From contig JAZDFE010000028.1 of assembly GCA_043808175.1 (NCBI GenBank), positions 17,079 through 81,078 of the forward strand: a stretch of 64,000 nucleotides of DNA, in the 5' to 3' direction. The position numbers were made by a program, and so were the translations under genes. The DNA comes from Candidatus Omnitrophota bacterium (lineage in GTDB: Bacteria > Omnitrophota > Omnitrophia > Omnitrophales > Aquincolibacteriaceae). The notes below the pieces were generated by a model that saw only the letters and a list, made by a program, of their open reading frames with translations, ran no database searches and had not been told where the DNA came from. Positions 7,913 through 42,828 of this stretch are shown one piece after another (position 1 is the first letter of the stretch; every line of letters starts with the position of its first letter).

Positions 7913-7930
7913 AAAACACCGTTCTTTCGT

Positions 7931-8743: not shown

Positions 8744-8846
8744 GAATCTCCTCCAAAATCAACACATCCATAAGACCAGCCACATGCCACCGTCAGATCT
8801 GTCCAACGATCTGTGGCGAACAGAAATAGCAACAAAACTCCTCTTT

Positions 8847-10789: not shown

Positions 10790-13255
10790 CTACGTCGCTT
10801 TTTCAAAAGAGATCCTTTCCCCACGGATCTCCGCCACGATTTTATCCCCCTCCTCGAACTTCCCGCCCAGGATCTCTTCGGCCAACACATTTTCAATATA
10901 ACGCTGGATCGTTCTTTTGAGGGGACGGGCCCCGAAGACCGGATCATACCCCTGATCGATCAAGAACTTCAGAACCTCGTCGGAAAGGATCAGCTCCATC
11001 TTCTTGTCCTTGAGACGATCGTGCACTTCTTTGAGCTCGATATGGATGATCTGCTCCAGGTCCTGACGCGTCAACGGATGAAAAACGATCATGTCATCGA
11101 CGCGGTTCAGGAATTCCGGACGGAAAACTTTTTTTGTTTCATCCAGAAGCTTTTGCTTCAATCCTTCGTAATTCATCTCGTCTTTTTTAGGCGCAAATCC
11201 AAGATCGCCCTGTTTCCGGACAAGTTCCGCCCCGACATTCGAGGTCATGATCACGACGGTATTCCGGAAATCCACCTTGCGACCGAAAGAATCCGTCAAA
11301 CGCCCTTCTTCCATGAGCTGGAGAAGGATATTGAAAACGTCCGGATGCGCCTTTTCGATCTCATCCAGGAGTATCACCGAATACGGACGCCGACGCACCT
11401 TCTCCGTGAGTTGTCCGCCCTCTTCATAGCCGACATACCCCGGAGGCGCCCCTACGAGACGCGAAACGTTGAATTTTTCTCCGTATTCGGAGCAATCCAC
11501 CACGACCACCGCGTCCTGATCACCGAACATGAAATCCGCAAGCGCACGGGCAAGAAGCGTCTTGCCGACACCGGTCGGACCTAAAAAGATAAACGATCCT
11601 ATGGGCCTACGCGGGTTACGAAGCCCGGAACGGGACCGGCGTACCGCGTGCGATATCGCACGGATCGCTTCGTCCTGGCCGATGATCTTCTTGTGGAGCT
11701 CTTCTTCCATTTTGAGAAGACGCGCCGTTTCTTTCTCTTCGAGACGCGCAAGAGGTACACCGGTCCACTTGGAAACCACGAACGCGATATCCTCTTCCGT
11801 CACCTGGACCTCGATCTCGGATTTGGATTCCTTCCAGCTCTTTTTCATTTTCTGGAGTTCTTCCTTGGCCTTACGCTCATCATCCCGCATCTTCGCGGCC
11901 TTTTCGAAATCCTGGGCCTTGATCGAAGCCTCTTTCTCGCGGCGAAGGGATTCGATCTCGGTCTCAACCTTCTTCAGGTCCTTGGGCATGGTCGTAACAG
12001 ACAATCTCGCACGCGAAGCCGCTTCATCAATGATATCGATCGCTTTGTCCGGAAGGAAACGGCCGGAAATGTAGCGGTCAGAAAGTTTCGCCGCAGCTTC
12101 AAGCGCCTCGTCAAGGATCTTCACCCGGTGATGGGCTTCATATTTGTCGCGCAATCCTCTCAGGATCTGGATCGTATCCTCCACGGACGGAGGTTCCACG
12201 ACCACGGTCTGAAAACGACGGGCCAGGGCCGCGTCCTTTTCAATGTACTTCCTGTATTCGTCAAGCGTCGTCGCTCCGATACACTGGATCTCACCGCGGG
12301 AAAGGGAAGGCTTCAAGATATTCGAAGCATCGATCGCGCCCTCGGCGCCTCCGGCGCCAACCAAGGTATGCAATTCATCAATAAAGATCATGACATTTTC
12401 CGTGCGGCGGATCTCGTCCATCACGGCCTTGATACGCTCTTCGAACTGGCCGCGGTATTTCGTCCCCGCCACCATCAGCGCAAGATCGAGCACGACGATA
12501 CGTTTATCCGCCAGGATCTCCGGCACATCGCCGGCGATGATCATCTGCGCGAGACCTTCCACGATCGCGGTCTTTCCGACCCCGGCTTCTCCCAAAAGCA
12601 CGGGGTTATTTTTTGTGCGCCGCGCGAGGATCTGGATCACGCGCTGGATCTCGTCTTGCCGGCCCACGACCGGGTCTAGTTTTCCTTCTCGAGCGAGTTG
12701 TGAAAGATCGCGACCAAATGCGTCAAGCGCGGGCGTTTTTGTCTTGGACTTCCCGCCGGCCCCGCCCCCGGGACCACCCATGGGGAGCGACGGCGCACCG
12801 GGTTCCGCATTCGGCGTCGTGGAACCCAAGAGTTTGATCACTTCGGAACGCACCTTGTTGAGGTCAAGCCCCACATTCATGAGCACATGGCTCGCCACAC
12901 CCTCACCTTCTTTGATGAGACCCAGAAGCAAATGCTCGGTCCCGATGTAGTTATGCCCGAGACGACGCGCCTCATCCATCGCCAACTCGATCACTTTCTT
13001 GGCCTTGGGCGTGAACGGGATATCCCCGGAAACAACCGTGCTCGGTCCGAATTGGACAAGTTTTTCAACTTCCAAGCGGATCGTATCAAGCGACAGCCCG
13101 AGATTCTGGAGCACCGCCGCCGCAACACTTTCCCCCTCCTTGATAAGCCCGAGCAAAATATGCTCGGTCCCGATGTAATCGTGATTGAATCTTTTCGCTT
13201 CTTCCTTGGCGAGAATAATGACCTTACGAGCTCTTTCCGTGAAACGATCGAACAT
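10790..13255 (-). CDS. clpC: ATP-dependent Clp protease ATP-binding subunit ClpC
   Basis: 821 aa. It has tandem Clp_N repeats ([10 protein letters not shown] and [10 protein letters not shown]), two AAA+ modules (GEAGVGKT and GPTGVGKT) and a UVR-like linker. Confidence 0.9.
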
Positions 13256-13321
13256 TGTGAACCTCCAAATTAATTAAACCGTTGTAAGACTGACTATAAT
13301 AACGGAGATTTATGTGATTCT

Positions 13322-14386
13322 CTAAAGAACGACTTTCGCGAAATATTCACGGATGCGAGAAGCGCGACGGGCATCACGTTCCGTAGTTCCAAGTTCTTTG
13401 CCGTTCATCTTCTGGAGATGCGCCGGCTGGATCAAAAGAAAAAGCTGGTTCAGATCCGTGTGAGTCACCTGTCCTTCCAAAACCCCGACATCGATCCCGA
13501 CCTGCACAAGTGACAAGAGCTGAATCGCCTCGGAGGAGGACATCATACGTGCCGATTTGAGCACCGCCAGGGCCCGCCAAATCTGATCTTCCATTTTGCT
13601 TTTGCGTTTTTTCTTGAGATACTCCCGGGCCTCGCGTTCATGCGTGATCACTTGCCGGATCACGCCCTCAAGATTCGAAATGATTTCACCTTCCGGCTGT
13701 CCCAATGTGATCTGGTTTGAAAATTGGAAAAAATTCCCGCTCGCTTGTGTTCCCTCGCCGTAAAGTCCGCGCACTGCAAGATTAAGCTTTGAAAGGGCCT
13801 GCAAAACTTTGTGAACCTGTTTGGTCAGAACAAGGCTCGGCAGATGCAGCATGCACGAGGCCCGGATGCCGGTTCCGACATTCGTCGGACAAGCCGTCAA
13901 ATACCCAAGCGTCCCGTCGAAGGCAAAATCCAGATCTTTTTCAAGTTCATTATCGATCTCATCGGCAATACGCCAGGTTTCGACGAGATTGAGACCCGAC
14001 TGGAACACTTGGAGCCGCAAATGGTCTTCTTCGATCATCATCAAACTCACCATTTCATCCGGCGTGATCACGACCGCACTCCTGCCCTCTTCCAAGAAAA
14101 GCTCCCGGCTGACCAAATGGCGCTCCAGAAGAAATTGCCGATCGAGTTCGGAAAGTTCTGTCGAAGAAATAAAATAAGCGTTTTTAAGGAAATTAGATCT
14201 CTTAATCGCCTCTCCAACTTCTTGAATGATCGCGATGCGCTGCTCGCCCGCAAGGCGGCTTAAAAAAGGATAACTCGCGAGATTGCGCGCCATGCGCAGG
14301 CGCGAGCTGATCACCACGTCACTTTCAGGCCCTGTAGCCCGGAGCCAATTCACCGGCTGGTCAATAAAACGATCGATCTCACTCAT
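13322..14386 (-). CDS. mcsB: Protein arginine kinase McsB
   Basis: Phosphagen-kinase-type core (CPTNVGTGIRASCMLHLP). I trimmed the start to MSEIDRFIDQP (ATG at 14386), which overlaps the mcsA stop by 8 nt. The longer ORF-track N-terminus lies out of frame inside mcsA. Confidence 0.8.
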   Translation of the reverse strand: MSEIDRFIDQPVNWLRATGPESDVVISSRLRMARNLASYPFLSRLAGEQRIAIIQEVGEAIKRSNFLKNAYFISSTELSELDRQFLLERHLVSRELFLEEGRSAVVITPDEMVSLMMIEEDHLRLQVFQSGLNLVETWRIADEIDNELEKDLDFAFDGTLGYLTACPTNVGTGIRASCMLHLPSLVLTKQVHKVLQALSKLNLAVRGLYGEGTQASGNFFQFSNQITLGQPEGEIISNLEGVIRQVITHEREAREYLKKKRKSKMEDQIWRALAVLKSARMMSSSEAIQLLSLVQVGIDVGVLEGQVTHTDLNQLFLLIQPAHLQKMNGKELGTTERDARRASRIREYFAKVVL

Positions 14387-14900
14387 CTTTTGGTCTCTTC
14401 GCTTTCTTGAACTTGGCCAAAGCTTGTTTAATCTCGTCCCGCAAGTGCGCCGCCTCCTCGAACGCTTCTTCTTGAATGCTTTTGCGGAGTTTTTCCTGTA
14501 GCTGGCGCAGGTCGTGGACGCTGCGCGTTTCCTTCGGGATACGGGATGGTTTTTTACCGACATGAGAACCCGAACGCTGGACTTGTTTGATGACGGTCGC
14601 AAGCGGTTTTTGAAAAGAGACATAGCATCCCGCACAGCCGAGACGCCCGTTCTTGGCGAAATCTTCGTAATTCATACCGCAGTCTTTGCAAACGAGCGGT
14701 ATTTTCTTGCCTGAAGCGCCGGGCACCGGCTCAAGACCCGGCATACCGGTCAGCAGATCTCCAAAATTGAAATAGGTTTTAAACTCCGTGCCTTTTTCTT
14801 CGGCGCACGCTTCGCAGATATGGACCTCGGCCATCTGGCCGTTGACAATCTCGGTCAGATGGATGGTCGCTTCTTTTGTGCCGCAAATATTGCAGATCAT
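14379..14900 (-). CDS. mcsA: McsA, activator of protein arginine kinase (zinc fingers plus UVR)
   Basis: CNICGTKEA...HICEACAEEKG and VCKDCG...GCAGCY are Cys4 pairs. A C-terminal UVR-like helix follows (FEEAAHLRDEIK). Confidence 0.8.
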   Translation of the reverse strand: MICNICGTKEATIHLTEIVNGQMAEVHICEACAEEKGTEFKTYFNFGDLLTGMPGLEPVPGASGKKIPLVCKDCGMNYEDFAKNGRLGCAGCYVSFQKPLATVIKQVQRSGSHVGKKPSRIPKETRSVHDLRQLQEKLRKSIQEEAFEEAAHLRDEIKQALAKFKKAKRPKDE

Positions 14901-15857: not shown

Positions 15858-16592
15858 TTATAAAACCGGTTTATTGTTAATGATCGTTTCCGGGGCCGGA
15901 ACCTTCGACTGCCCGGGAATCAGGACTCCGTCCTGCAAACGATAGGAGCGTGCATATCTTGATGCCATCTCCTCATCGTGAGTCACGACCAGAAATGCCT
16001 GACCTTCCTGTTGATTAAGTTCGTTCAGAAGCGTCATCACTGAGCCCGCGGTCTCAGGATCCAGATTCCCGGTAGGTTCATCACAAAGCACCACGGCCGG
16101 ATGGTTCACAAGCGCCCGCGCGATTGCCACACGCTGCTGCTCACCGCCCGAAAGCTCGGAGGGGTAATGGGTCCTGCGGTTCCAAAGACGCACGCGCTTC
16201 AAAATTTCCTTGACCCACGGCTTGTTGGGCTTTCCCGCGATCAGAGTCGGCAAGAGCACATTTTCAAAAACGGTCAATTCAGGCAGCAAGTGATAGAACT
16301 GGAACACAAAACCGACTTGATGACTTCGCAACCGCGCGAGTTCCCTTTCCGACATCTCGACCATATCTTTGCCTTCAAAGAAGATCTTCCCGTCAGTCGC
16401 CCGGTCCAAACCGCCGAGAATGTGCAGCAGGGTCGATTTTCCGCAACCCGACTTTCCGGTAATAAAAACCATCTCCTCCTTGCGAACGATCAATTGAACC
16501 GAACGCAAGATCTCCAGTGTCCCAACCGGTGTCTCGTAATCTTTACGGACATCGAACGCGCTTAGCAAGGGGGCTTCTACAATGTCACTCAT
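15858..16592 (-). CDS. lolD: Lipoprotein-releasing ABC ATPase LolD
   Basis: Walker [10 protein letters not shown], signature LSGGEQQR and Walker [11 protein letters not shown]. It lies downstream of a LolC/E-type permease. Confidence 0.75.
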
Positions 16593-17892
16593 AGCGGAGC
16601 GCCTCGACCGGATTGAGATTCGCCGCCCGGTGTGCCGGATAAAAACCCGCCACCACCGCCACGATCAGCGCAAAACCGACGATGGTCAAAACGTCTGGCA
16701 TATGCACCTCGGATGGAATGCGATCGAAAAGATAGATATCGCTCGGGAACACATCAAGCCCGGTGGTTTTTTTAAGGAAATCCGCCACGGGATTCAGATT
16801 ATACGCAAGCGCAAGCCCCATCACCGCCCCAAGAATGATCCCCAGAGATCCGATGCTGAATCCTTCCATGACAAAGATCCTGCGAATGCTCATGCGTGTC
16901 GCCCCAAGCGCCCGGAGGATCCCGATGTCTTTGGTCTTTTCCATCACGACCATGGTAAGGGTCGAAATGATATTGAACGCCGCCACCAGGATAATGAGCG
17001 CCAGGAGGATCGTCATCACGCTCTTTTCGACCTTAAGCGCCTGAAAAAAATTCTGGTTCATATCATACCAGGAACGGAAAAAATACTGATTTGAAAAATC
17101 CCCAGCGATCACCCACTTCCATTTTTCCGCATCGTCCACATTCTTAAAACGCATGCTGATCCCGGATACCTTGTGTCCCATCTGATAGACCTTTTGAGCC
17201 TGATCGATAGCAACAAGCGCGAGTGAAGTGTCAAAATCGTTCATCCCCACGCGATAGATCCCACGCACCAGGAACGGCCAGGTTCGTACGTGCATCGGAA
17301 GCGGGACGAACGGATTTTCGGGTTCAGGGATCGGCGTGATCATGTAGATCACATCCCCCACTTGGGCGCCAAGCGATGCCGCTAAATTCTCCCCGATAAC
17401 AACACTGCCGTAACGCGTCTCGATCTTGTGTTTAAAGAACCAAAGGAACCGCTTGCGCTCAATCTGCACGGAATCTTTAAAATTCAAAGTCCCGGATACC
17501 AAGTTCTTCTCAAAGATGTTCAGATCTTCCGACTCCGGATCAATCCCCTTGACCACAACACCGGTCGCATTCTTGGTGCTCCGGAGAATGGCCTGTCCTT
17601 CGACGAATCTTGACGCGGAAACAAGCCCGGGAATGTTATGTCTCCGGATCGCGGCAATGTCACGGTCCGCATCCTCGATCCCATCCACTTTTTCGATCCT
17701 CAAGTGCGGCTGAACGCCCACGATCTTGTTTTTCAACTCACGGTCAAAGCCGCTCATCACCGCAAGCACAACGATCAGGGCCATGACCCCGATCGCCACC
17801 CCGCCGACCGAGATCATGGAGATGAGTGAAATAAAACCCGTCTTGCGCCGCCGTGTCAGATGTCTTCCTGCGATAAAAGTTTCAAATCCCAT
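16585..17892 (-). CDS. lolC: Lipoprotein-releasing system permease LolC/E (FtsX/MacB-type)
   Basis: 435 aa. An N-terminal TM helix is followed by a large periplasmic domain and a C-terminal FtsX-like 3-TM bundle. It overlaps lolD by 8 nt. Confidence 0.7.
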   Translation of the reverse strand: MGFETFIAGRHLTRRRKTGFISLISMISVGGVAIGVMALIVVLAVMSGFDRELKNKIVGVQPHLRIEKVDGIEDADRDIAAIRRHNIPGLVSASRFVEGQAILRSTKNATGVVVKGIDPESEDLNIFEKNLVSGTLNFKDSVQIERKRFLWFFKHKIETRYGSVVIGENLAASLGAQVGDVIYMITPIPEPENPFVPLPMHVRTWPFLVRGIYRVGMNDFDTSLALVAIDQAQKVYQMGHKVSGISMRFKNVDDAEKWKWVIAGDFSNQYFFRSWYDMNQNFFQALKVEKSVMTILLALIILVAAFNIISTLTMVVMEKTKDIGILRALGATRMSIRRIFVMEGFSIGSLGIILGAVMGLALAYNLNPVADFLKKTTGLDVFPSDIYLFDRIPSEVHMPDVLTIVGFALIVAVVAGFYPAHRAANLNPVEALRYE

Positions 17893-19302: not shown

Positions 19303-19432
19303 TTAGACTTATCCTTATTCCTTGATGCAGAATGATTTAAGACGATTTGAGGCGTTATTATATGTTAGTTTTCAGGCGGGGTCAATTGACGGATAACCTC
19401 TATTTACCTTGACCCTCCTTCTCCATTTGCCT

Positions 19433-20605
19433 ATGATTCCACTCCTTATGGAAATCATCGCGAATGCTACGTTATTTCTCCTCCTCTTCATTCTGGCAGG
19501 CTGGGTCTATCGCAGCTGGCGATCGTTATCCGAGTTGAAACAAGCGCCCACCCTGAAGCTCGCGGGGCCTGCACCCCGCCAAGGAAAAGTTTCGATCCTC
19601 ATTCCCGCCAAGAATGAAGAGAAGAATATCGCGGATTGCGTCCAGCCTCTCCTCGCCCAACTTCGTGAGAACGATGAGATTTTTGTCATCAATAACTGTT
19701 CCGAGGACAGGACAGAAGCGGTCCTTAAGAAACTTGGGGCTGTTGAGGTCCGGTCCGAAGATCCTTCAGGGAATTCACGCGCAAAGTTCAAATACCTCAA
19801 CACCCCCTCCACCCCAGGGGGATGGACAGGCAAGAATTTCGCCCTCCATCTCGGGATCGAACATGCGGCAGGCGACTGGCTTCTTTTCACCGACGCGGAT
19901 ACTCGCCACGAACCCGGGAGCCTCAACGCGGCCCTTTCCTTTGCGGAAGGACGAAAGCTCGACCTTTTGACACTCCTGCCTCGCTGCCTTGCCCATGGCT
20001 TTTGGGAAGAAGTGATCCAACCTTGCGCGATGGGCTATATGGGGCTTTGGTTCCCCGTCCGAAAGATCAATGATCCGAAATCCAAGGTTTATTTCGGGAA
20101 TGGACAGTACTTGCTCATACGTGCGGAATATTATCGAAAGATCGGCGGACACGAGGATGTGAAGGAAGCCTTTCTCGAAGACTTTGCGTTGATGCAAAAG
20201 ACGAAAGAAACGGGAGCCCGCGGGATGTGCGCTTTCGGAATGGAAATCTACGGCACAAGAATGTATGAATCCTTTGGCGCGATCTGGCGGGGCTGGCGGA
20301 GGATCTATCTTCATGCATTTGAACAAAAGCCGCTGCCAATCCTGAAATGCGGCCTGAGTGTTTTCTTTTTTTCTTTCTTCCCCTTTATAGTACTGGCCAC
20401 GCTGCCTTGGTCTTTCTCCTTTTCTCTGCTTCTTTGTCTCTTTATTCTTGCTATTATTTTCGCCACCGCAGCCACGGCCTACGCGATCGTCAGAGCCAGG
20501 AAGCGTTATGCCCTGCTTCATCCGCTCGCAGCGCTGGTCTTTACGGCCATTCTCTTCGACGCCTTTCAAATGGCCTTTTTCCAACGCCAAACCCACTGGC
20601 GCTAA
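19433..20605 (+). CDS. Membrane glycosyltransferase family 2
   Basis: This is the only plus-strand gene. VSILIPAKNEEKNI and LLFTDADTRHEP (DxD-type) are GT2 motifs, flanked by TM helices. The ORF track starts at a TTG (19409). ATG 19433 (MIPLLMEII) is my preferred start. Confidence 0.7.
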   Translation: MIPLLMEIIANATLFLLLFILAGWVYRSWRSLSELKQAPTLKLAGPAPRQGKVSILIPAKNEEKNIADCVQPLLAQLRENDEIFVINNCSEDRTEAVLKKLGAVEVRSEDPSGNSRAKFKYLNTPSTPGGWTGKNFALHLGIEHAAGDWLLFTDADTRHEPGSLNAALSFAEGRKLDLLTLLPRCLAHGFWEEVIQPCAMGYMGLWFPVRKINDPKSKVYFGNGQYLLIRAEYYRKIGGHEDVKEAFLEDFALMQKTKETGARGMCAFGMEIYGTRMYESFGAIWRGWRRIYLHAFEQKPLPILKCGLSVFFFSFFPFIVLATLPWSFSFSLLLCLFILAIIFATAATAYAIVRARKRYALLHPLAALVFTAILFDAFQMAFFQRQTHWR

Positions 20606-20608
20606 CAC

Positions 20609-20647
20609 AAAAAAAGCGTTACCTCGGGTTTGTATCCAAGATAACGC
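20609..20647 (-). terminator. Rho-independent terminator for the minus-strand unit ending at 20668
   Basis: On the minus strand, GCGTTATCTTGG-ATACAAAC-CCGAGGTAACGC forms a 12-bp stem including two G-U pairs. It is followed by TTTTTTTGTG. Confidence 0.7.
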
Positions 20648-20667
20648 CTCTCCGAAATAAACGATTC

Positions 20668-20997
20668 TTAGTTAGAACTATTTTTGCTTGGTTTGGACTT
20701 CTCAGAACTCAACTTGCTACTTTTCTTGGAGGAAGACTTTTTCACAGAACTCTTTTTCGCTTTCTTCTTTTTCGTTTCTTCCGTTTTCTTCTTCTCTTTT
20801 GTCGTACCGACCTCATTCACCGCGTTACTCGTCTGACCAGCCGCCATTGCACTCACGGGGCTTTCACTTGTCACGGTCGCCTGGGGCTCCGGAGAGACCA
20901 TCGGATCCAGATCCCGGGAGATCTCTGCACCTGCGCTTGGAATCCAAAAACCCAGGACAGTTAAAATCAATATTGAGATCATGGCTTTTTTCATCAA
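20668..20997 (-). CDS. Small secreted Lys/Ser-rich protein (hypothetical)
   Basis: The signal peptide is MMKKAMISILILTVLGFWIPSAGA. A low-complexity basic tail follows (KKKTEETKKKKAKKSSVKKSSSKK). Confidence 0.45.
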   Translation of the reverse strand: MMKKAMISILILTVLGFWIPSAGAEISRDLDPMVSPEPQATVTSESPVSAMAAGQTSNAVNEVGTTKEKKKTEETKKKKAKKSSVKKSSSKKSSKLSSEKSKPSKNSSN

Positions 20998-21031: not shown

Positions 21032-22129
21032 TTAGATGGCTAGATAACCGACTTTAACGGCATAACGGACCAGTGTCTTAAGAAAGGCGTGATCGGTCTT
21101 CGGCATCGGGATCCCAGTGTCGCGCAGGATCTCGCGAGTATTGGTGTTATCAAACGTGAGACGCCCGTTCAGATAGCCCAGATAAGGCTCCAGCATCGCA
21201 AAAACCATCTGCTCCTGCGCGCCCATCTTGCTTTTCATGAAATGTTTAGGATCGATCACCTCGATCGGAGGAACGGTCGAGTATTCCTCTTCTCCCACCC
21301 GCAGAAGCATGCCGATCGAAGGCGGCTTGGGCGCCACCACATGGAAAGTCTTATTAATGCTCCGCGGATCCTTCATGATTGCGCAGGTTGCCCGGATCAC
21401 AAAATCAATGGGTACGATATTGAACGTATTCTCACGATGGGTGGGGATCTTTGAAAGAACTCCGTGGGCGAAAAGCTTGATAAAAGGATAGATCACATTG
21501 AAATCCGAGACTGCGCCGGTTTCCGAATGACCTACCACAATACTCGGACGGATGATCGTGACTGGAAGACCCTTTGCCATCGCCTCGCGCACCTTGGTCT
21601 CGGCCTTGTATTTACTCGACTCGTAGTAGTTCGCGAACACAGGTTTGGCTGGTAGTTCATCCTCTTTTGAATAATGGTCCCAGACGCTCCCGGCCACAAA
21701 CGCCGTACTGAAATAGACAAACCGCTCAAGTTTTCCTTTTTTGCGGAGATCCCAGGCCAGCTCGAGCGCGTGTTCCGTGCCTCCTACATTGATCTGCTGG
21801 CATTCCTTTTCGGTCCCGTTCAAAGCCGTAAGCGCCGCAATGTGATAGAAAACCTTGCACTCGCGCTCCAGGTACTCAAGCTCCGTTTTTTTGATCCCAA
21901 ATTTGTGATGGGTCACGTCCCCCTCGATCACATGGACGCGAGAACCTAGATGAGAATCAATGCCGATCGATGCAAGGATTTTTTTGACCCTCTCCGAATG
22001 GGAGGCGCGGTTTTTCGCGCGGGCCAGGAGCGCGATCTGGGCGTTCGTGGTCCGAAGCAGTTCCTTGACAAGGTCCTGCCCCAACACGCCGGTCGCACCG
22101 GTCATAAAGATCAAGTTATGAGTCATCAT
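21032..22129 (-). CDS. Standalone thioester (acyl-ACP/CoA) reductase, extended SDR / NAD_binding_4 type
   Basis: Rossmann motif FMTGATGVLG, GDV....FGI, a YYESSKYKAE (YxxxK) catalytic motif and IIRPSIVVGHSETG. This pattern resembles terminal reductase (R) domains. It overlaps the upstream KS gene by 14 nt. Confidence 0.65.
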   Translation of the reverse strand: MMTHNLIFMTGATGVLGQDLVKELLRTTNAQIALLARAKNRASHSERVKKILASIGIDSHLGSRVHVIEGDVTHHKFGIKKTELEYLERECKVFYHIAALTALNGTEKECQQINVGGTEHALELAWDLRKKGKLERFVYFSTAFVAGSVWDHYSKEDELPAKPVFANYYESSKYKAETKVREAMAKGLPVTIIRPSIVVGHSETGAVSDFNVIYPFIKLFAHGVLSKIPTHRENTFNIVPIDFVIRATCAIMKDPRSINKTFHVVAPKPPSIGMLLRVGEEEYSTVPPIEVIDPKHFMKSKMGAQEQMVFAMLEPYLGYLNGRLTFDNTNTREILRDTGIPMPKTDHAFLKTLVRYAVKVGYLAI

Positions 22130-23423
22130 ATCTTCTCAAAGCTAAACAAATGTTCTGACCCCCGAACCCAAACGAGTTGGAGAGTGCTATATTCACATTC
22201 GAGCGCCGGGCTGTGTTCGGCACATAGTCCAGATCACACTCGGGATCCGGTTCTTCATAATTGATCGTCGGCGGGATCACCGAATCACGCATGGCCATTA
22301 AGCAAATAATCGCTTCGACCCCGCCGGCCGCCGCGATCATGTGCCCGAGCATGGATTTCGTCGAGCTTATCGGAACTTTCGGCGCATAATCCCTCATCAC
22401 TTTTTTGATGACGAGGGTCTCCAGCGAATCGTTCACTGCGGTGGAAGTTCCGTGCGCATTGATATAATCAATATTTTGAGGCCCAACGCAAGCTTTTTCC
22501 ATAGCAATTTCCATAGCACGCACCGCGCCACGACCCTCCGGGTCCATATCCGTAAGACGGTACGCGTCCGCCGTCGAGCCGTAACCCACGACTTCCCCGT
22601 GGATCGAGGCCTTGCGCCTGCGTGCGTGCTTCAACTCTTCCAGGATCAACACCCCCGCGCCTTCGCCAATCACGAACCCATCCCGTTTTTTGTCGAACGG
22701 CCGCGAGGCTTTTTCGGGTTCCTCGTTGCGGGTGGAAAGCGTCGTCAATAAACCAAATCCGGCAACCCCCATCGGATAGATCATGGAATGGGAACCTCCG
22801 GCCATCATAATGTCGGCATCACCGCGCCTTATCCATTCAAAGGCTTCCCCGATCGCCTGTGACGATGCCGCGCACGCCGTCAAACAATTTGAGACCGGTC
22901 CGCGAATATCAAAAAGACGTGTCAGATGTGTCACGGTCATGAACGGCTGGTTTTCAAGCTCCCGCAAGGCGCTCATATTCTCATTCGCAAGTTGAAGATA
23001 TTTTCCTTTATCCACAACGTCGGTACCCCCGACGCCATCCTTCGTAAAGGACGCCACCAAAGTTTTAATGAACGGATCAAAATCGATCCCGCTGTCGCCC
23101 GCGCCAAAATAAATACCGAAACGGTTCGGATTTACGGCGAGCGGCTCTAGGCCGGCGCCCTTGTAAGCCTCCGCGGCGGCCTGGAGCGCAAAGAAAGTGC
23201 TCCGGCTCGCGCAGCTGAGCGGCGGATTGCGCTCAAGCCATTTTTCAAATGAGAATCCCTTGACCTCACCTGCAATGCGCGTCGGAAAACGGCTTGCATC
23301 GAAAAGCGTGATGGGGCCGATCCCCGACTTCCCTTGTGTCAGACGAAGCCAGGTATCACGCACCGAATTTCCAAGGGGCGTGACGGCGCCCATCCCAGTA
23401 ACCACCACTCTGCGTTTTAACAT
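22116..23423 (-). CDS. Beta-ketoacyl synthase (FabF-like, catalytically intact)
   Basis: The Cys-His-His triad is present: LTACAASSQAIGEA, NAHGTSTAVND and STKSMLGHMIAAAG. Confidence 0.8.
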   Translation of the reverse strand: MLKRRVVVTGMGAVTPLGNSVRDTWLRLTQGKSGIGPITLFDASRFPTRIAGEVKGFSFEKWLERNPPLSCASRSTFFALQAAAEAYKGAGLEPLAVNPNRFGIYFGAGDSGIDFDPFIKTLVASFTKDGVGGTDVVDKGKYLQLANENMSALRELENQPFMTVTHLTRLFDIRGPVSNCLTACAASSQAIGEAFEWIRRGDADIMMAGGSHSMIYPMGVAGFGLLTTLSTRNEEPEKASRPFDKKRDGFVIGEGAGVLILEELKHARRRKASIHGEVVGYGSTADAYRLTDMDPEGRGAVRAMEIAMEKACVGPQNIDYINAHGTSTAVNDSLETLVIKKVMRDYAPKVPISSTKSMLGHMIAAAGGVEAIICLMAMRDSVIPPTINYEEPDPECDLDYVPNTARRSNVNIALSNSFGFGGQNICLALRRYDDS

Positions 23424-24703
23424 TTTTTAAATACCAGAGACGCGTTTTGGCCGCCCAATCCGAATGTGTTCAAAACAGCCACGTTCACTTGGCAAGATTT
23501 CGCTTTATCCTTGACGAACGGCAGTGAACATTCGGGATCCGGGCTCTCAAGATTAATGACCGGAGGCACCTGTCCTTTTTTCGTGGTCATGGCCGCGACC
23601 ACAGCCTCCACGCTCCCGGTTCCATAAACCAGATTCCCGGTCACAGGCTTTATCGTAGTAACGTGAAGCTTTTTGAAAGTGGAAGCATAGAAAGAATGGA
23701 CTGCGAGCGACTCCTGGACATCCTCCTGCGGGATGCCGCTCCCGTTCGCCACAAGGACATCGACATCCGAGGGTTCAAGTGCGGCGTCTTCGAGGGCCCG
23801 GCGGATCGCCACGCGCTTTCCCGTGAAGTCATCCGGATCGCGCGGATCATAATTAAAATCCGAGGAGGATCCATACCCCGCAATCTCGGCATAGACCGAT
23901 GCCCCGCGTTTTTTCGCACTCTCGAGAGATTCCAGCACCAAGATCCCCGCACCTTCGCCCAGAACGATCCCGTCATGTTTTTTGTCAAAAGGACAATAAA
24001 CTTTCTCGGGTAGTTCTTCTCGCGTTGAAAGAAGACCGAGAAGCTGGAAACGCGAGATCCCCATTGCGTTAAGTTTGGAGTCCGTGCCGCCCGCAAGCAT
24101 GATGTCCGCATCCCCGCGCTCGACCACGCGGTACGCTTCCCCGATTGCTTGCGTGCCCGCGGCCGAAGACGTCGTGATGGTATTGTTCGGACCCCGGAGC
24201 TGATTTGCAACGGAGATATGACAGGCCGGCATATTCGGAAGATATTTCAGGAACCAGAGTGGGAAAAGCGAGCGGATGCCGTCTTGTCCGAACTTGGTCA
24301 TGGAGAAATGTCCGTTCTCATCCAGGCCGTTCCGGAAGCCCACCCCGATCTCATCGAGATCGTTATTGATGATCCCGGTCCCAAGCGTCACGCCGATGCG
24401 CGTGGGATCATAGTTTTCCAGGGAAAGTTTGGCGTCCTTAAGTGCTAGGCGGCTTGCGGCAACGGCCATCTGGATCTCGCGGGACATCAGCTTGATGGAT
24501 TTCCGGTTCTCGATGAATTCTTTCGGTTCAAATCCGGACAACATCCCGGCGTATTTAAAAGAGGGACAGTGGAGCCTAAGAGGATCGGAGCTTCGGATCG
24601 CAGAACACCCGTGAAGTGCGGCATCCCAGTAAGGTTCCCAGCCGTTCCCGCACGGCGTGATGACCCCGAAACCTGTGATGACGACACGGCGTTTTTCACT
24701 CAT
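23417..24703 (-). CDS. KS-like partner lacking the catalytic triad (chain-length-factor-like)
   Basis: It aligns with the neighbouring KS, but the triad positions read Ser-Asn-Asn: TTSSAAGTQAIGEA, ANGSGIPQED and KPVTGNLVYGTG. Confidence 0.7.
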   Translation of the reverse strand: MSEKRRVVITGFGVITPCGNGWEPYWDAALHGCSAIRSSDPLRLHCPSFKYAGMLSGFEPKEFIENRKSIKLMSREIQMAVAASRLALKDAKLSLENYDPTRIGVTLGTGIINNDLDEIGVGFRNGLDENGHFSMTKFGQDGIRSLFPLWFLKYLPNMPACHISVANQLRGPNNTITTSSAAGTQAIGEAYRVVERGDADIMLAGGTDSKLNAMGISRFQLLGLLSTREELPEKVYCPFDKKHDGIVLGEGAGILVLESLESAKKRGASVYAEIAGYGSSSDFNYDPRDPDDFTGKRVAIRRALEDAALEPSDVDVLVANGSGIPQEDVQESLAVHSFYASTFKKLHVTTIKPVTGNLVYGTGSVEAVVAAMTTKKGQVPPVINLESPDPECSLPFVKDKAKSCQVNVAVLNTFGLGGQNASLVFKKC

Positions 24704-25137
24704 GAAGATCGTATGATTTTCTCGCGAACGTTAAAATGTTTCATGAAAGCCTCGTGGAATGTGATGGACTTCGTCTGCTCCGCGGAAAGACCCCTCACCG
24801 CCACGAGCAAAAGTTTCGCTCGCGCCACCAATCCTTCGGCGCATGTGATCGTCGCCTCCAACCAGCCGCCTTCGGCCCCGAGACTTTCGGACCAGGCCTC
24901 GATCTGAAGGGGGGTGCCGAACTTCGGAATGTTTGTGATGGTCACGTTCTCGATCTTTGCGAAAATGAGATCTTTTTGGTAATCGCTTTCCGCACCGACC
25001 AAGAGACCGCCGGTTTGCGCCATCATTTCGATGAAGAGAACTTCCGAGCTATAGGGAGTCCGGGGAACTTTGGCGGAAGCAACGGCTTTTTCTCCTTTAC
25101 GAATCGAATGGACTTTCTCAAGAAGAAGCCAACGCAT
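24700..25137 (-). CDS. Hotdog-fold protein, FabA/FabZ-like without the HxxxxG-type His motif
   Basis: 145 aa. IEMMAQTGGLL resembles the FabZ central-helix motif. I found no HFP-type catalytic His segment. Confidence 0.5.
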   Translation of the reverse strand: MRWLLLEKVHSIRKGEKAVASAKVPRTPYSSEVLFIEMMAQTGGLLVGAESDYQKDLIFAKIENVTITNIPKFGTPLQIEAWSESLGAEGGWLEATITCAEGLVARAKLLLVAVRGLSAEQTKSITFHEAFMKHFNVREKIIRSS

Positions 25138-25138
25138 G

Positions 25139-25579
25139 TTATCTCCAGATCATGGCCTGCGCGCCCACCAGGTCCCCGCTCCGGAAAAAATGCCCTTCCC
25201 CGCGATAAAGCTTCTTGGTACGCCCGGTCCGCCATTCCATCTCAAAGTGATCTCCTCCGCACCGTTTCATCCGCATGCCCTGAAACCCCTCGAGCCCCAT
25301 CCAGGCTTCACCGCAAGCCTTGAAGAACGCCTCCTTGGCTGTAAAAAGTTCGGCGAATTCTTGCAGGGAAAGACGCTTGAAGGAACGGCGTTCCGAAAAA
25401 TTCAGAAAACGTTCGCGAACATAACCCTTATGGCGAGAAAGAAATCGCTTCACACGATCGCGGGACACCAGATCGACACCCACGCCGCACAGCGTGGCAG
25501 ACCGTCTCTCGATTGTTTTCTGGCAGTTGGACGAATTTCGCCCTGAGTGACGGGAAGATTTTTGTTTTACGAGCAACAT
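25139..25579 (-). CDS. acpS: 4'-phosphopantetheinyl transferase (AcpS type)
   Basis: GVGVDLVSRDRV and FTAKEAFFKA are AcpS-type motifs. The true start may lie downstream of the ORF-track start. Confidence 0.65.
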   Translation of the reverse strand: MLLVKQKSSRHSGRNSSNCQKTIERRSATLCGVGVDLVSRDRVKRFLSRHKGYVRERFLNFSERRSFKRLSLQEFAELFTAKEAFFKACGEAWMGLEGFQGMRMKRCGGDHFEMEWRTGRTKKLYRGEGHFFRSGDLVGAQAMIWR

Positions 25580-25980
25580 TGATCGGAGCAGGAACTCTTG
25601 CCCAAGCGGTCACTAAGATAACGAAGGAGCATTTTCACCGTAAAGCAGTCCGCCAGCTTTGTGATCTGCGGATCTTTGGCGAATTCTTCGAGTTCGAGAT
25701 AAGGGAGCTTCACACGAAGTTCCACAAGCCCTTCCGCCGTGACCATACCTTCCTTCACGAAACGTTCATCATTTAAAAGATGGCTCGGGAAAAGATCCCC
25801 GGCCGGGATCTTGAGATCGAAGGCTTTTTCAAGGCGGAAAACAATATCGATGAAATCGATGGACTCCGCGCCAAGGTCCCGCTTCAAGGAAGCCTCCGGC
25901 GTGATCTCTGATTCATCCACACCCAGCGCGCCAGCAAGTGTTTGCTGGACTTTCGTAAAGAGCTCTTTCTCCATGATCAT
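25567..25980 (-). CDS. Acyl carrier protein with a ~55-aa C-terminal extension
   Basis: DLGAESIDFIDIVFRLEKAF is a PP-binding motif with the attachment Ser. At 137 aa it is far longer than the usual ~80 aa. It ends in the Cys-rich tail SSCSDQCCS. Confidence 0.7.
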   Translation of the reverse strand: MIMEKELFTKVQQTLAGALGVDESEITPEASLKRDLGAESIDFIDIVFRLEKAFDLKIPAGDLFPSHLLNDERFVKEGMVTAEGLVELRVKLPYLELEEFAKDPQITKLADCFTVKMLLRYLSDRLGKSSCSDQCCS

Positions 25981-26002
25981 TCTAGCGTCCTTCCTAAGTT
26001 GT

Positions 26003-26422
26003 CTACGACAATGCTGATGATTGCGGGTTCTTCACTTTGGCCAACGTTAACTTGGCCGATACGGCGACGTCACCATGATAAAATAATTTCGCATCCCAGA
26101 TCGTTTCCTCGCCCTCGCTTTGCATGAGCATGAGCCGGCTTTCCCATTCGTCCCCGGGCCTGAGATATTTCGTGAATCGGGTCGCGCGGATCTGCTTCAA
26201 AAAATAATGCTGTCCCTCACCGCTCGCGATCGATGCCAAATACCGCTCCGCGGTCTGCTTGAGCATCTCAAGCGCCAACACCCCGGGTAACACCGGAAAT
26301 CCAGGAAAATGATCTTTGAAAAATTCGGAGTCTTCTGGAATACGGCCGCACGCCGTAATCCCCTCTCCCTCTTTCATCCAAAGAACCTTTTCGATCGAGA
26401 GCACTGTCATGAGCCTCCTCAA
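26003..26422 (-). CDS. FabZ-like beta-hydroxyacyl-ACP dehydratase
   Basis: FFKDHFPGFPVLPGVLALEMLKQTA matches the FabZ His and central-helix motif. Confidence 0.75.
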   Translation of the reverse strand: MRRLMTVLSIEKVLWMKEGEGITACGRIPEDSEFFKDHFPGFPVLPGVLALEMLKQTAERYLASIASGEGQHYFLKQIRATRFTKYLRPGDEWESRLMLMQSEGEETIWDAKLFYHGDVAVSAKLTLAKVKNPQSSALS

Positions 26423-26442
26423 CTAGGATAAGGTCTTAGGCG

Positions 26443-27288
26443 TTAAGATCTTATTCCTTCCAAAACATAGATCCCGTTCAAAATTCGGAATCCCGAAAGC
26501 CAAGTATGAAAACTTTTAAAAGAACTGACTTCAAAACCAGCCACTCTAAAGAATTCCCGCCACTCGTCATCCTTACGAAACTGATGTGGATGCGTCATGA
26601 ACTCCATATTGAGGAGCCTGTCACGGCAAATGGTCCAGAACCGGCCGACCCCATGATGATAAAGATCTTCGACTACCACGACCTTTTGGCGCGTCACCCG
26701 CCGCACTTCTTTGAAAAGTGCTTGCGGATCCGGCACGTGATGAAGCATGGTTATGAGAATCGCCACATCAAAACTTTGATCCGGAAATGGGATCCTGGAG
26801 CCATCATACAGCACCACCGGAGCCTTCTGGTAACCGGGGTTTACGACATCCAGAACCAGATGCTCATGTCCTCTCGTCTTGAGAGGTCCGGCGTAAAAAC
26901 CCCAACCCCCTCCGAGATCCAAGATCCGGCTTCCCAGCGGGATCTGATTTTCAAAAAGCCGAACGATCTTTTCTGCCCGGACCTCAAGAGCACTATGAGC
27001 AAAGTGCCTGACAATCCCGTCCAGCACCCGGCGCTGAAAGACCCGCAGATTATTCTTAATGGTGTTCACGATCTCGATTGCAATAGTTTTTGAGCGGGAA
27101 ATTATAGCATAGGGCTTGTTTTTGCCCCAAGAATCTTTTTTAGATAAATGTCCCTCTTGAGCCTTGATTACAGTATCCGTCAAAAATTCAATCTTAAAGG
27201 CTTTTACGACGCCCCACTTTTTTGTGGCCCACAGTAAGAGGTAGCTCCAACAATCCAACACAACACCCGATGCTAGATCACTCGTCAT
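26443..27288 (-). CDS. Class I SAM-dependent methyltransferase
   Basis: ILDLGGGWGFYA (motif I), FDVAILITMLHHV and RQKVVVVED. I trimmed the start to MTSDLASG (ATG at 27288), which abuts the def stop at 27291. The longer ORF-track form overlaps def out of frame. Confidence 0.7.
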   Translation of the reverse strand: MTSDLASGVVLDCWSYLLLWATKKWGVVKAFKIEFLTDTVIKAQEGHLSKKDSWGKNKPYAIISRSKTIAIEIVNTIKNNLRVFQRRVLDGIVRHFAHSALEVRAEKIVRLFENQIPLGSRILDLGGGWGFYAGPLKTRGHEHLVLDVVNPGYQKAPVVLYDGSRIPFPDQSFDVAILITMLHHVPDPQALFKEVRRVTRQKVVVVEDLYHHGVGRFWTICRDRLLNMEFMTHPHQFRKDDEWREFFRVAGFEVSSFKSFHTWLSGFRILNGIYVLEGIRS

Positions 27289-27791: not shown

Positions 27792-28343
27792 TTACAAGGA
27801 AACACGTTCCAAGGGTTTGACCTGGATCTCGATCTTCAACTTCCTCGCGACCTTCGCTAAAAGAGTTTTGAGCTTCGCCAGAACTCCCTTATCCGGCACA
27901 TCTACTTCCAAGAGCATCGCGTAAGTGGTCTTGGCGCCCTTACCCAGGATCCGGCTGTCGAGATCCGTAATGTTGACGCCCAACCCCGCCAGCGCGCGGC
28001 TCACTTCATAAACGATCCCGGTGCGGTCCTTGCCGAACGCGGTGATCATGCAGGAAAGAGAGCCCTTCGCGTGTTTTTTCCCGTGCGGGATCTTCCCCTT
28101 CAACTCGGTCACATGACAATCCAGGAACCAGGGAATACCTCTGAGGAGCTCCAAACCTTGCAGCACACGGACCCCGGACACCATCGATGGCAGGCAGGCA
28201 GTCATCATCATGGCGAATTGCCCCTCCAAAAGGGTCATGCTGATATCCTCAAGGTTACATCCCCGGGCAAACAAAAGACCGCTCACCTTGGCGATGATAC
28301 CGGGCTTATCTTTACCGCTGACCGTGATCAGTATTTTTCTCAT
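27792..28343 (-). CDS. Tandem ACT-domain protein (GcvR-like)
   Basis: Two ACT-like repeats are visible: ITVSGKDKPGIIAKVSGLL and ITAFGKDRTGIVYEVSRAL. Confidence 0.6.
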   Translation of the reverse strand: MRKILITVSGKDKPGIIAKVSGLLFARGCNLEDISMTLLEGQFAMMMTACLPSMVSGVRVLQGLELLRGIPWFLDCHVTELKGKIPHGKKHAKGSLSCMITAFGKDRTGIVYEVSRALAGLGVNITDLDSRILGKGAKTTYAMLLEVDVPDKGVLAKLKTLLAKVARKLKIEIQVKPLERVSL

Positions 28344-29971
28344 TTTTTCTTACCCCCAAGGATTTTAGAAAGCGCGCTCACGCCCTGTTGGATCATTTGG
28401 TCCTGCTCCGAAAGAGCCCCCTGCGATTGCGTGGAACCGCCGAGGCTTGCGATCTTCCCGGCTTTCTTGCCCCCCAGAAGCCGCTCCACTCCGCTGCTTA
28501 AAAGTTGATCCGCCCCGCTCTGCAACAGCTTTGAACCGATATAACCTAGGTCCGGCTGGACCGCGGCGTTCGGGAAAATACCGCGGTAACTGAACGGGAT
28601 CATGACTTGGCCGTTCCGGTCCGCGATCAATTCCATTTCGCGGATCTTTTTCATTAAATAGGCTGAGATGGCTTGAGATAACAACAACTGCATGGAACCT
28701 TCGACACGCTTGTCCAGGATCCCATAGGTCCCCCGGCCGGACAACTGATAGTTGGAATGTGTCAGCCGGAATTCGCTGATCCGCACAATCCCAGTCTCTA
28801 CCCCACACACCACTTGCAAGGACTGGAACGGCGTGTCACGTTCCTTTAACATTTCATTCAATTCCGGCGGAAGCTCCCCACCAAGGGCATTCGTGATCGC
28901 AAGCACGGGGGAAAGACGGTCAAAAACCTCCTTGATGAGATTCCGGTTCTTGAGAGCCCCGTCCAGGATCTCGATCGTTCCCTGTCCCTTAAGAGATCGT
29001 TGGAGCATGGCGGGATTCGCTCCCTCGAAGGAAAGCTGCGCCTTGACACTAAGACGTCCGGTCACATAATCACCGCTCTTATAAACGGCCGGGATCACTG
29101 ATTCCATGTCCAGGTCACGCACCTCAAGAGTTCCCTCAAAATGTGGCAAGGTGTTGACCATTTTGAGACGACCTTTGAACACCGCTTTTTCAGGACCGTA
29201 ACGCAGCAGAAAAACCAGCGACCGCAACCCCAGGTCCAGATCCCCCTGCGCTTCCAGGTTTCTTTTGGAGGAGTTAAACACAGACCCCCCCGCCGTAAAA
29301 TGGAATAGTGAAGCGGAAGTTTTCTGCAAGACCTCAGCCTCCAGCTTTTCGATCTTCAGTTTATAGACCGGCTCGATTGTCTCATCCGTGAAGTGGATGG
29401 TCGCATTCCGCACGAGGATCTTCCCAAGCCTGAATTCCCAACCTTGGGCAATACGGTCCAGATTCTTCAACGAAATACTTTCCGTTCCTTCCGAAGCTTC
29501 GGCCGTCGGAATAAGACGCCCCTGAGGGTGCGCGGGCGCAACAGCCTGAGCAGAAGCAGCGGGTTCTTTAGCCGCTTGAAAATTCCAGGCCCCTCCCCGG
29601 CTACGCTTGAGAAAGATCTCGGGACTCTGGATCACGACTTGAGACATGCTGAAATGCTTCTGTAGGGCCGAAGTCAGATCGGCATCGATCCGGATCTGAT
29701 CGCTTTGCAGGATCTTTTCGAGAGTCTTGGGATGATAGAATTTGAGACCGGCCACCTGAAGCTGCGGCTGGAGCTTCCATTGGAACTTGATATCGCCAAG
29801 CTCCACACGAAAACCGGTCTGCTGGGTGAGATACTTTTCGAATTCCGCCCGGAACATATTGGGATCAAAGTTACGGATCGCAAAGTAACCGACCCCCCCA
29901 AGGATGATTCCGAGGATCAAGAGCGCGGCAAGAAGACCTCCCAGGAATTTCAGGAAACCTCGTAAGACCAT
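28340..29971 (-). CDS. asmA: AsmA family outer-membrane biogenesis protein
   Basis: An N-terminal TM helix is followed by an AsmA-like start (FDPNMFRAEFEKYLTQQTGFRVELGDIKF) and a long beta-rich body. Confidence 0.6.
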   Translation of the reverse strand: MVLRGFLKFLGGLLAALLILGIILGGVGYFAIRNFDPNMFRAEFEKYLTQQTGFRVELGDIKFQWKLQPQLQVAGLKFYHPKTLEKILQSDQIRIDADLTSALQKHFSMSQVVIQSPEIFLKRSRGGAWNFQAAKEPAASAQAVAPAHPQGRLIPTAEASEGTESISLKNLDRIAQGWEFRLGKILVRNATIHFTDETIEPVYKLKIEKLEAEVLQKTSASLFHFTAGGSVFNSSKRNLEAQGDLDLGLRSLVFLLRYGPEKAVFKGRLKMVNTLPHFEGTLEVRDLDMESVIPAVYKSGDYVTGRLSVKAQLSFEGANPAMLQRSLKGQGTIEILDGALKNRNLIKEVFDRLSPVLAITNALGGELPPELNEMLKERDTPFQSLQVVCGVETGIVRISEFRLTHSNYQLSGRGTYGILDKRVEGSMQLLLSQAISAYLMKKIREMELIADRNGQVMIPFSYRGIFPNAAVQPDLGYIGSKLLQSGADQLLSSGVERLLGGKKAGKIASLGGSTQSQGALSEQDQMIQQGVSALSKILGGKKK

Positions 29972-38104: not shown

Positions 38105-38136
38105 GAAGTTCACAGGCTCCCATTTTATCACAAAAC

Positions 38137-40808: not shown

Positions 40809-40846
40809 GTGAGAGAGATTAGCAGAAAACCTCCAAGAAAACAGCC

Positions 40847-42825: not shown

Positions 42826-42828
42826 GGT

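Follow-up and report, generated by a model that had tools for sequence, protein, structure and literature searches.

Cluster I of the anammox bacteria (KustE3603-3608), which belong to the Planctomycetes-Verrucomicrobia-Chlamydiae (PVC) superphylum, encodes the acyl carrier protein (ACP) amxACP, the dehydratase amxFabZ and the FabF-type pair amxFabFmut/amxFabF2. The gene for amxFabFmut lies just upstream of that for amxFabF2, and the two proteins form a heterodimer that resembles a beta-ketoacyl-ACP synthase (KS) paired with a chain-length factor (CLF); it decarboxylates malonyl-ACP and can initiate synthesis, favours its own ACP, and has been presented as the first CLF in a fatty-acid pathway (bioRxiv 10.64898/2026.05.19.726425, Granatino et al.). 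Paralogues of fabF lacking the catalytic Cys had been listed for anammox bacteria and Rhodopirellula, and planctomycetes carry several fabB/F paralogues, with K. stuttgartiensis also having a standard fabF (Rattray et al. 2009, PMC2649909). Here we describe an eight-gene operon on the minus strand of a 64-kb stretch of Candidatus Omnitrophota DNA (the window, meaning the whole stretch analysed), whose closest characterised analogue is, as judged by analogy, the amxFabF2/amxFabFmut heterodimer. This kind of cassette is already known; what is new is a FabF/FabF-mut cassette with a reductase and a glycosyltransferase at its end, found phylum-wide in the Omnitrophota. With moderate confidence, we read the operon as a self-contained module resembling type II fatty acid synthase (FAS), which would build an ACP-bound chain, release it reductively and pass it on to a glycolipid, probably of the envelope.

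As in anammox Cluster I, an active FabF is encoded immediately downstream of a FabF that lacks the catalytic triad, and each of the two loci has an unusual ACP of its own together with a variant FabZ. The anammox cluster includes a cobalamin radical-SAM (S-adenosylmethionine) enzyme and a phytoene-desaturase homologue, neither of which is present in the window; within the related Omnitrophota loci, B12-radical-SAM genes are seen in the variants L028 and L046 only. Conversely, the Omnitrophota operon goes beyond Cluster I in having a phosphopantetheinyl transferase (PPTase), a hotdog protein without the catalytic His, a SAM-dependent methyltransferase, a thioester reductase (TR) and a family 2 glycosyltransferase (GT2). 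The active-site Cys of the non-catalytic partner (hereafter KS') is replaced by Ser in the window protein and by Val or Thr in the anammox proteins.

The eight genes are consecutive, as established from a listing of open reading frames (ORFs) with Pfam and NCBIfam scans, and all the domains claimed for them in the first-pass annotation of this DNA are present. From 5' to 3' they encode the methyltransferase, a FabZ-like dehydratase, the ACP, the PPTase, the His-less hotdog protein, KS', KS and TR. Most of them are coupled through overlapping or abutting stop and start codons, and the operon measures about 6.5 kb, to which the convergent GT2 gene is added (Table 1). A sigma-70-type promoter motif upstream of the methyltransferase gene is kept in more than 15 Omnitrophota species regardless of the gene further upstream, and its -10 element is of the near-consensus extended type both where that gene is def, as in the window, and where it encodes a divergent short-chain dehydrogenase/reductase (SDR). 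The strong terminator previously placed at 20609..20647 is real, a hairpin followed by U7 at 20650-20609 with a folding energy of -26.5 kcal/mol (z = -3.5); it was confirmed by direct folding, a simple consensus scan having missed the 20609-20650 hairpin. The GT2 gene converging on the unit and the small secreted Lys-rich protein at its end were also correctly recognized in the first-pass annotation. Since the operon has its own conserved promoter and its own terminator, it is a single transcription unit. The methyltransferase gene had been assumed to start at 27288, giving a 281-residue protein, and this start is wrong. Orthologues are 208-209 residues long and align end to end from the GTG at 27069, close relatives (L007 and L010) have an in-frame stop within the supposed N-terminal extension, and the upstream DNA is the conserved promoter; the start is therefore GTG 27069.

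Table 1. Coordinates of the operon, its control elements and neighbouring genes, numbered from the first letter of the window
Feature	Position	Strand	Details
Class I SAM-dependent methyltransferase, 208 aa	26443..27069	-	GTG start; Methyltransf_11, Methyltransf_23
FabZ/FabA-like 3-hydroxyacyl-ACP dehydratase	26003..26410	-	PF07977, 46.5 bits; catalytic His and Glu
Dedicated ACP, 137 aa	25567..25980	-	PP-binding, 47 bits; motif AESIDF
AcpS-type 4'-phosphopantetheinyl transferase	25139..25579	-	PF01648 (ACPS), 42.9 bits
His-less hotdog protein (dehydratase partner), 145 aa	24700..25137	-	no Pfam match; Glu kept
Non-catalytic FabF paralogue (KS', CLF-like)	23417..24703	-	ketoacyl-synt N and C domains
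Active FabF-like beta-ketoacyl-ACP synthase (KS)	22116..23423	-	Cys-His-Lys-His intact
Stand-alone thioester reductase/fatty-acyl reductase-type SDR (TR)	21032..22129	-	NAD_binding_4 (PF07993), 190 bits
Small secreted Lys/Ser-rich low-complexity protein	20668..20994	-	signal-peptide-like N-terminus; last gene before terminator
Convergent integral-membrane GT2/GT21-type glycosyltransferase (HpnB/CruG-like)	19409..20605	+	Glycos_transf_2, Glyco_transf_21
Sigma-70-type promoter	27101..27130	-	-35 TTGGGG (27130-27125), 18-nt spacer, extended -10 TGCTATAAT (27109-27101)
Intrinsic terminator	20609..20650	-	13-bp stem, 8-nt loop, U7; between operon and convergent GT2
MlaD, MlaF, MlaE, DUF748 protein, LolD, LolC/E, AsmA/YhdP-like	6336-10772, 15858-17892, 28340-29971		envelope-lipid transport neighbours

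With the fabF model TIGR03150 the KS reaches 486.4 bits, just short of the equivalog cut-off (493.75), and it clears the KAS II subfamily model NF005589 (478 bits against a cut-off of 387). Its best match in the PDB is B. subtilis FabF (PDB identifier 4ls5) with 382 bits, and its Cys-His-Lys-His set is invariant in 37 of 37 true orthologues. KS', whose gene overlaps that of KS and which is 36% identical to it, carries Ser, Asn, Lys and Asn at these four positions, and its best model is again FabF (354 bits against a cut-off of 494). Among KS' orthologues, the Cys position is occupied by Ser in 37, Ala in two and Thr in one, the first His position by Asn in 38 of 40, and the second by Asn, His or Asp; thus, active-site residues vary among the partners and never among the KS orthologues. 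FabF-like proteins with degenerate triads are numerous, as seen in a search of 1.84 billion representative sequences. A neighbour-joining phylogeny groups the cassette KSs in one clade (bootstrap 89-99) and their partners in another (77-78), the two clades branching in parallel, as would suit a co-evolving pair, and lying apart from E. coli FabF, ApeO and ApeR; the tree is distance-based with weakly supported deep nodes, and type II polyketide synthase (PKS) sequences were left out of it. A stand-alone KS with an intact triad at 2018-3307 of locus L054 (P0130), 45% identical to the KS' of the window, branches within the partner clade and, on sequence grounds, may represent an ancestral, still-active form of the partner.

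Type II PKS systems such as those of actinorhodin and ishigamide (Iga11/Iga12) likewise combine an active KS (KS-alpha) with an adjacent non-catalytic homologue (KS-beta) and a dedicated ACP. The earlier proposal that the operon follows type II PKS rather than FAS logic was, however, overstated, because FabF models give the highest scores for each of the two KS proteins; with the polyketide KS model PRK07103 the scores fall to 219 bits for KS and 190 bits for KS'. Also, the type II PKS CLF has Gln at the position of the active-site Cys, in contrast to the Ser of KS', and Gln is found in none of the 40 KS' orthologues. The operon, unlike type II PKS clusters, is without cyclases and aromatases, has dehydratases inside and is accompanied by an enoyl reductase (ER)-type SDR in most relatives. 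An aromatic type II PKS is thus rejected by the profile scores and by the partner's active-site residue, while the combination of a KS, a non-catalytic partner, a dedicated ACP and paired hotdog proteins, as first noted, is supported as a dedicated ACP-dependent chain builder.

The dehydratase probably starts at ATG 26410, which is preceded by GAGGAGG, and scores 65 bits against FabZ models with a cut-off of 113. Its catalytic His is conserved in 36 of 36 orthologues and its Glu in 35. The 145-residue protein that escapes Pfam is, from profile-profile comparison, a true hotdog homologue: it aligns with the dehydratase family with an hhalign probability of 97.7% (E 1.5e-12), an 11-residue deletion taking out the DHFPG loop while the catalytic Glu is retained, and this Glu is conserved in 41 of 41 orthologues. 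A C-terminal motif, TFHxxFMxHFxVRxK (residues ~124-140), is conserved among the orthologues of the His-less protein and is not seen in the catalytic dehydratase.

The ACP scores below the cut-offs of the AcpP models in NCBIfam, retains the phosphopantetheine-site Ser in 41 of 41 orthologues, and has a basic helix II motif, ESIDFIDIVFRLEK. The first-pass annotation called it an extended ACP, and the additional length is real. In an AlphaFold2 model (mean predicted local distance difference test score of 84.8), the extra ~50 residues appear as an insert between helix II and helices III/IV and not as a C-terminal tail, a placement that rests on this one model. The same insert-bearing type of ACP is found, with 47-57% identity, in Planctomycetota cassettes, and the family is abundant, with all source-named members from Planctomycetota. 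The PPTase scores 30-38 bits against AcpS models, below their cut-offs, and may start at ATG 25579 or, with a GVGVDL-type start, at GTG 25483; its orthologues are 125-127 residues long.

The last enzyme of the operon is of the TR or fatty-acyl reductase (FAR) type. The window protein has the motifs TGATGVLG and YESSK, aligns to positions 2-371 of the 371-position model TIGR01746, and has as its best PDB match the reductase domain of MxaA (E 1e-30), a domain that carries out reductive chain release. All 34 orthologues have the TGxxGxxG motif, the catalytic Thr and YxxxK. Because the terminal enzyme is of this type and all its catalytic motifs are conserved, release as an aldehyde or alcohol, as originally suggested, is the best reading of the sequence. 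No specific family could be assigned to the methyltransferase in the NCBIfam scan; the DVU_1556-type model (43 bits, where 155 are required) and BioC (22 bits) are far from accepted, and ApeB gave no match, so that none of these three identities is retained. The start of the GT2 is uncertain between 19409 and 19448. Its best models are Glyco_transf_21, HpnB (136 bits) and CruG (120 bits), the latter two below their cut-offs, which suggest that it belongs to a lipid-acceptor glycosyltransferase family. The small Lys/Ser-rich protein is confined to close relatives (43-63% identity) and lies outside the phylum-wide set.

The operon had been described as an orphan, which it is not: it is conserved throughout the Omnitrophota and its core cassette is also found in Planctomycetota. 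In a tblastn synteny table of species-level genomes, the order of the eight genes is the same in all 31 loci that are long enough, and the eight proteins are 31-96% identical across these genomes. This recurrence is more than chance. When KS' was used as a query, its matches at 56-95% identity fell into at least 120 clusters (90% identity level), and every named one among them was Candidatus Omnitrophota. A scan based on the hotdog-partner alignment, taking one genome per species, found 44 loci, about 41 of them with the cluster and the source-named ones all from Omnitrophota; as the scan relies on matching exact peptide patterns, this count is a lower bound. L046 and L047, the Omnitrophota versions that diverge most, both retain the His-less hotdog protein.

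Certain neighbours recur as well. Twenty-nine loci have the convergent GT2 (47-85% identity), which stays beside the TR gene where both flanks differ (the window, L006, L007 and L010). For example, in L006, which is 90% identical, a 7691-residue protein is encoded upstream and signalling genes lie downstream, and even so the GT2 and the small-protein gene remain with the eight-gene set. We therefore think that the GT2 probably belongs to the pathway and is not a bystander. A divergent SDR adjoins the methyltransferase gene in 27 loci of related genomes, and in the sub-lineage of the window (L007, L010, L021) def takes its place. This SDR was considered as the missing ketoreductase (KR) and rejected: with a Y-x6-K spacing (motif YGAIGISK) and its best score against the FabL model NF005975 (304.8 bits with a cut-off of 328, compared to ~172-180 bits for FabG models), it is of the enoyl-reductase type. 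In deep-branching Omnitrophota lineages an MMPL/HpnN-like pump follows the GT2. No homologue of the SDR, aldo-keto reductase, MMPL or Lnt neighbours of the relatives was found in the window. The earlier observation that KR, ER and acyltransferase are missing thus holds for the window, while an ER-type gene stands next to the operon in the 27 related genomes.

Two Omnitrophota variants carry additional enzymes. In L028 (14160-19710), TR is followed by three B12-radical-SAM genes and a different, same-strand GT2 that replaces the membrane GT2, and in L046 a B12-radical-SAM (+DUF4070) gene (3102-4874) precedes the methyltransferase gene. The presence of these genes beside the operon suggests alkyl-chain tailoring in some lineages. 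They look like lineage-specific decorations of the operon and are reminiscent of 'ladderane-type' lipid clusters. 'Ladderane' clusters have been reported by antiSMASH in metagenome-assembled genomes of Omnitrophota (PMC9902471, a metagenomic study), and at least some of them are plausibly the operon described here.

Outside the Omnitrophota, related cassettes have the order dehydratase, an optional KR or B12-radical-SAM gene, insert ACP (126-143 aa), second hotdog protein, KS' and KS. The contigs that carry these cassette KSs were assigned to Planctomycetota solely through the relatives of their ACPs. They resemble the Omnitrophota operon in the core order of dehydratase, ACP, second hotdog, KS' and KS and in the insert of their ACPs, and their KSs and partners form sister clades to those of the Omnitrophota. 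They differ in that the second hotdog protein still matches the FabA Pfam model, in the KR or radical-SAM genes held within, and in the genes for off-loading. In L004, L053 and L055, an alpha/beta-hydrolase, a GH3 protein and methyltransferases follow, and in L052 an LpxL-type acyltransferase, where the Omnitrophota have TR and GT2. The trio of GH3, hydrolase and methyltransferase is reminiscent of OlsH, OlsI and OlsG, the ornithine-lipid genes of planctomycetes (PMC12493201), the GH3 amido-synthetase being OlsH-like and the methyltransferases OlsG-like. Because related cassettes precede OlsH-like GH3, alpha/beta-hydrolase and LpxL-type enzymes, the data fit a view of the cassette as a module that is reused in different settings, producing a special acyl chain for differing lipid head-group enzymes. 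In L055, the cassette consists of dehydratase, ACP, AcpS, hotdog, KS', KS and GH3. The same locus encodes, at 2979-5444, an 821-residue MFS/TLC (ATP/ADP translocase-like) protein with HEAT repeats, which hints at an energy-parasitic organism.

We propose that the AcpS-type PPTase activates the dedicated insert-bearing ACP and that the FabF-like KS and its Cys-less paralogue form a KS/CLF-type heterodimer, which would extend the chain with malonyl units. By analogy with the anammox pair, this heterodimer may self-prime through decarboxylation of malonyl-ACP, which would account for the absence of a starter enzyme here. The His-bearing dehydratase and the His-less hotdog protein could similarly form a dimer with one active site, in which His and Glu complement each other. 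The ketoreductase would be supplied from elsewhere in the genome, and enoyl reduction would fall to the FabL-type SDR. As most relatives conserve this enoyl reductase beside the operon, a saturated chain appears more likely than a polyene, and the unsaturated product initially envisaged is not favoured. TR would take the completed acyl-ACP to a fatty aldehyde or alcohol, the membrane GT2 would glycosylate the resulting lipid alcohol, and in deep-branching relatives the MMPL pump perhaps carries the product toward the outer membrane. The methyltransferase would add a methyl group at an unspecified site. The surroundings of the operon in the window are rich in envelope-lipid transport genes (AsmA/YhdP-like, DUF748, MlaDEF and LolCDE), which fits an outer-membrane destination of the product without proving one.

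The proposed scheme recalls, by chemical logic alone, heterocyst glycolipid synthesis in cyanobacteria, in which multidomain type I PKSs of the HglE/HglC type, a terminal reductase and a glycosyltransferase operate: a chain is built by a KS/CLF-type enzyme, released reductively to an alcohol, glycosylated and exported to an outer layer. A literature search found no paper on the cluster in Omnitrophota, nor on a system combining KS/CLF, TR, glycosyltransferase and MMPL. The compact operon points to a lineage-specific envelope lipid of the Omnitrophota, a phylum of which we know no isolated member. FabF/FabF-mut heterodimer cassettes seem to be widespread in the PVC superphylum, beyond anammox bacteria, and are apparently coupled to varied modes of off-loading, namely, reductive release with glycosylation, amino-acid conjugation and acyl transfer.

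Several observations weigh against a glycolipid-forming module of this kind. The KS pair, like the Planctomycetota-type cassette proteins, is no nearer to chains B and C of PDB entry 9s5h (two different KS chains, whose anammox identity is unconfirmed) than to ordinary FabF; the pair scores 298 and 177 bits with the former and 382 and 286 bits with the latter. Orthology of the pair with anammox Cluster I is therefore unsupported by these PDB scores, with the same caveat on the identity of 9s5h. TR scores 175.3 bits with TIGR01746, below the curated cut-off of 213.35. KR, ER, acyltransferase and MMPL are all absent from the window, and two related loci, L046 (4916-6780) and L047 (3-1630), are without the His-bearing dehydratase gene between those for the methyltransferase and the ACP. 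GT2, SDR and MMPL lie in a broadly syntenic region that also retains Lnt, LysS and LolCDE, so that adjacency is weak evidence of function. The literature search found no Omnitrophota lipid data. Lastly, the nearness of the KS to the FabF equivalog cut-off, along with the AcpS in the operon, means that the operon could be the organism's main FAS.

This last explanation, a serious one though we consider it unlikely, holds that the operon is the main FAS elongation machinery of the Omnitrophota, with heterodimeric KS and dehydratase, and that TR diverts some of the acyl-ACP to alcohol. The KS would qualify by its scores with the FabF and KAS II models, yet it groups with the Planctomycetota-type cassette KSs (so assigned via their ACP relatives) and not with E. 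coli FabF, and the planctomycetes offer a precedent for keeping several fabB/F paralogues, K. stuttgartiensis having a standard fabF as well. An AcpS-type PPTase inside the operon would suit a housekeeping set, whereas its atypical ACP, with 137 residues, an insert, a basic helix II and scores under the AcpP cut-offs, and a dehydratase far below the FabZ cut-off would not. The near-consensus extended -10 promoter, the core-gene surroundings, the phylum-wide conservation and the conserved FabL-type neighbour are also as expected for primary metabolism. Neither the window nor ~800 kb of related loci showed another fabF, fabH, fabD, plsX or canonical acpP, and tblastn with E. coli PlsX, FabH, FabD, FabG, AcpP and FabF matched only the cluster itself and the SDR; however, these loci span the neighbourhood of the cluster only, so the missing second FAS set says little. 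Single copies of FabF, FabZ, ACP and AcpS are possible, as the source data of Seymour et al. 2023 give these as presence/absence only, for three Omnitrophota groupings. A bolder version, which we regard as improbable, is that the Omnitrophota lack canonical FabF and AcpP altogether, make most or all of their acyl chains via the heterodimeric cassette, and use TR and GT2 to form a phylum-specific alkyl-glycoside, a fatty-alcohol glycolipid destined for the outer membrane. Were this so, the lipid would represent a previously undescribed class in bacterial envelopes and could serve as a biomarker of this phylum, which is widespread and uncultured.

It is also rather improbable, in our view, that the module and TR supply alcohol or aldehyde to a lipid without a sugar, such as an ether lipid or a wax ester, and that the GT2 is an unrelated neighbour. 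The GT2 is indeed transcribed separately from the opposite strand, in a region that is syntenic in its entirety and where adjacency is weak evidence, but it remains at the TR end despite rearrangement of both flanks. Loci L028 and L030 have no membrane-type GT2 beside the TR gene, although L028 has another GT2 within its extended operon. Fatty alcohols and ether-linked chains do occur in the anammox bacteria, which belong to the related PVC group (bioRxiv 10.64898/2026.05.19.726425, introduction); no AGPS, PlsA or ElbD-type ether-lipid enzyme, however, lies near the cluster in any locus viewed.

The aryl polyene (APE) clusters share generic parts with the Omnitrophota operon, viz., a methyltransferase, a KS and a partner, an ACP, two hotdog dehydratases, a GT2 and an MMPL pump. 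BLASTP against the Ape proteins of E. coli CFT073 gave no match for ApeB, ApeC, ApeH, ApeJ or ApeK and only generic KS, ACP and SDR similarity otherwise, the KS being 34% identical to ApeR and the MMPL of the relatives 27% identical over 157 residues to its CFT073 counterpart. ApeC, a short CLF of 240 residues, and ApeH, an aryl-activating ligase, are thus without Omnitrophota counterparts by BLAST; aryl starter activation is absent, and TR stands where APE clusters have a thioesterase and a lysophospholipid acyltransferase. An aryl-polyene cluster is rejected on these grounds and on the separation of the KS pair from ApeO and ApeR in the tree, in agreement with the first-pass annotation. An APE-like or other polyene pigment, in which lack of enoyl reduction would lead to a polyenal or polyenol, glycosylated afterwards in the manner of carotenoid glycosides, could draw on the absence of ER and KR from the window, on the precomputed Pfam matches of dehydratase orthologues to the ApeI-like domain PF22818 (the window protein matched FabA only) and on the pigment-like combination of a CruG-like GT2 and an MMPL pump, but is very unlikely given the missing Ape equivalents and aryl-starter enzymes, the separate KS branches and the Y-x6-K enoyl-reductase type of the SDR beside the operon in most relatives.

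Other genes of the window and of related loci are noted briefly. A single minus-strand ORF at 49256-50269 joins a CDP-alcohol phosphatidyltransferase (PgsA-like) domain and a PgpA phosphatidylglycerophosphatase domain, and from this fusion the organism appears to make ordinary phosphatidylglycerol as well. A type IV pilus/type II secretion-like cluster on the minus strand (36440-46744) encodes a secretin, PilM, a pilin with an N-methylation motif and a T2SSF protein, in addition to two tandem T2SSE/MshEN ATPases and a small MshEN-only protein. At 10790-14635, also on the minus strand, a ClpC-type AAA+ chaperone adjoins an ATP:guanido phosphotransferase resembling the protein arginine kinase McsB, a pairing that is better known from Firmicutes. 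Giant proteins are encoded near the operon in relatives (7691 aa in L006, 1-7423; 5287 aa in L001, 1-286), and the end of the window itself holds two overlapping minus-strand ORFs of 2203 (51690-58301) and 1816 (58286-63736) residues.

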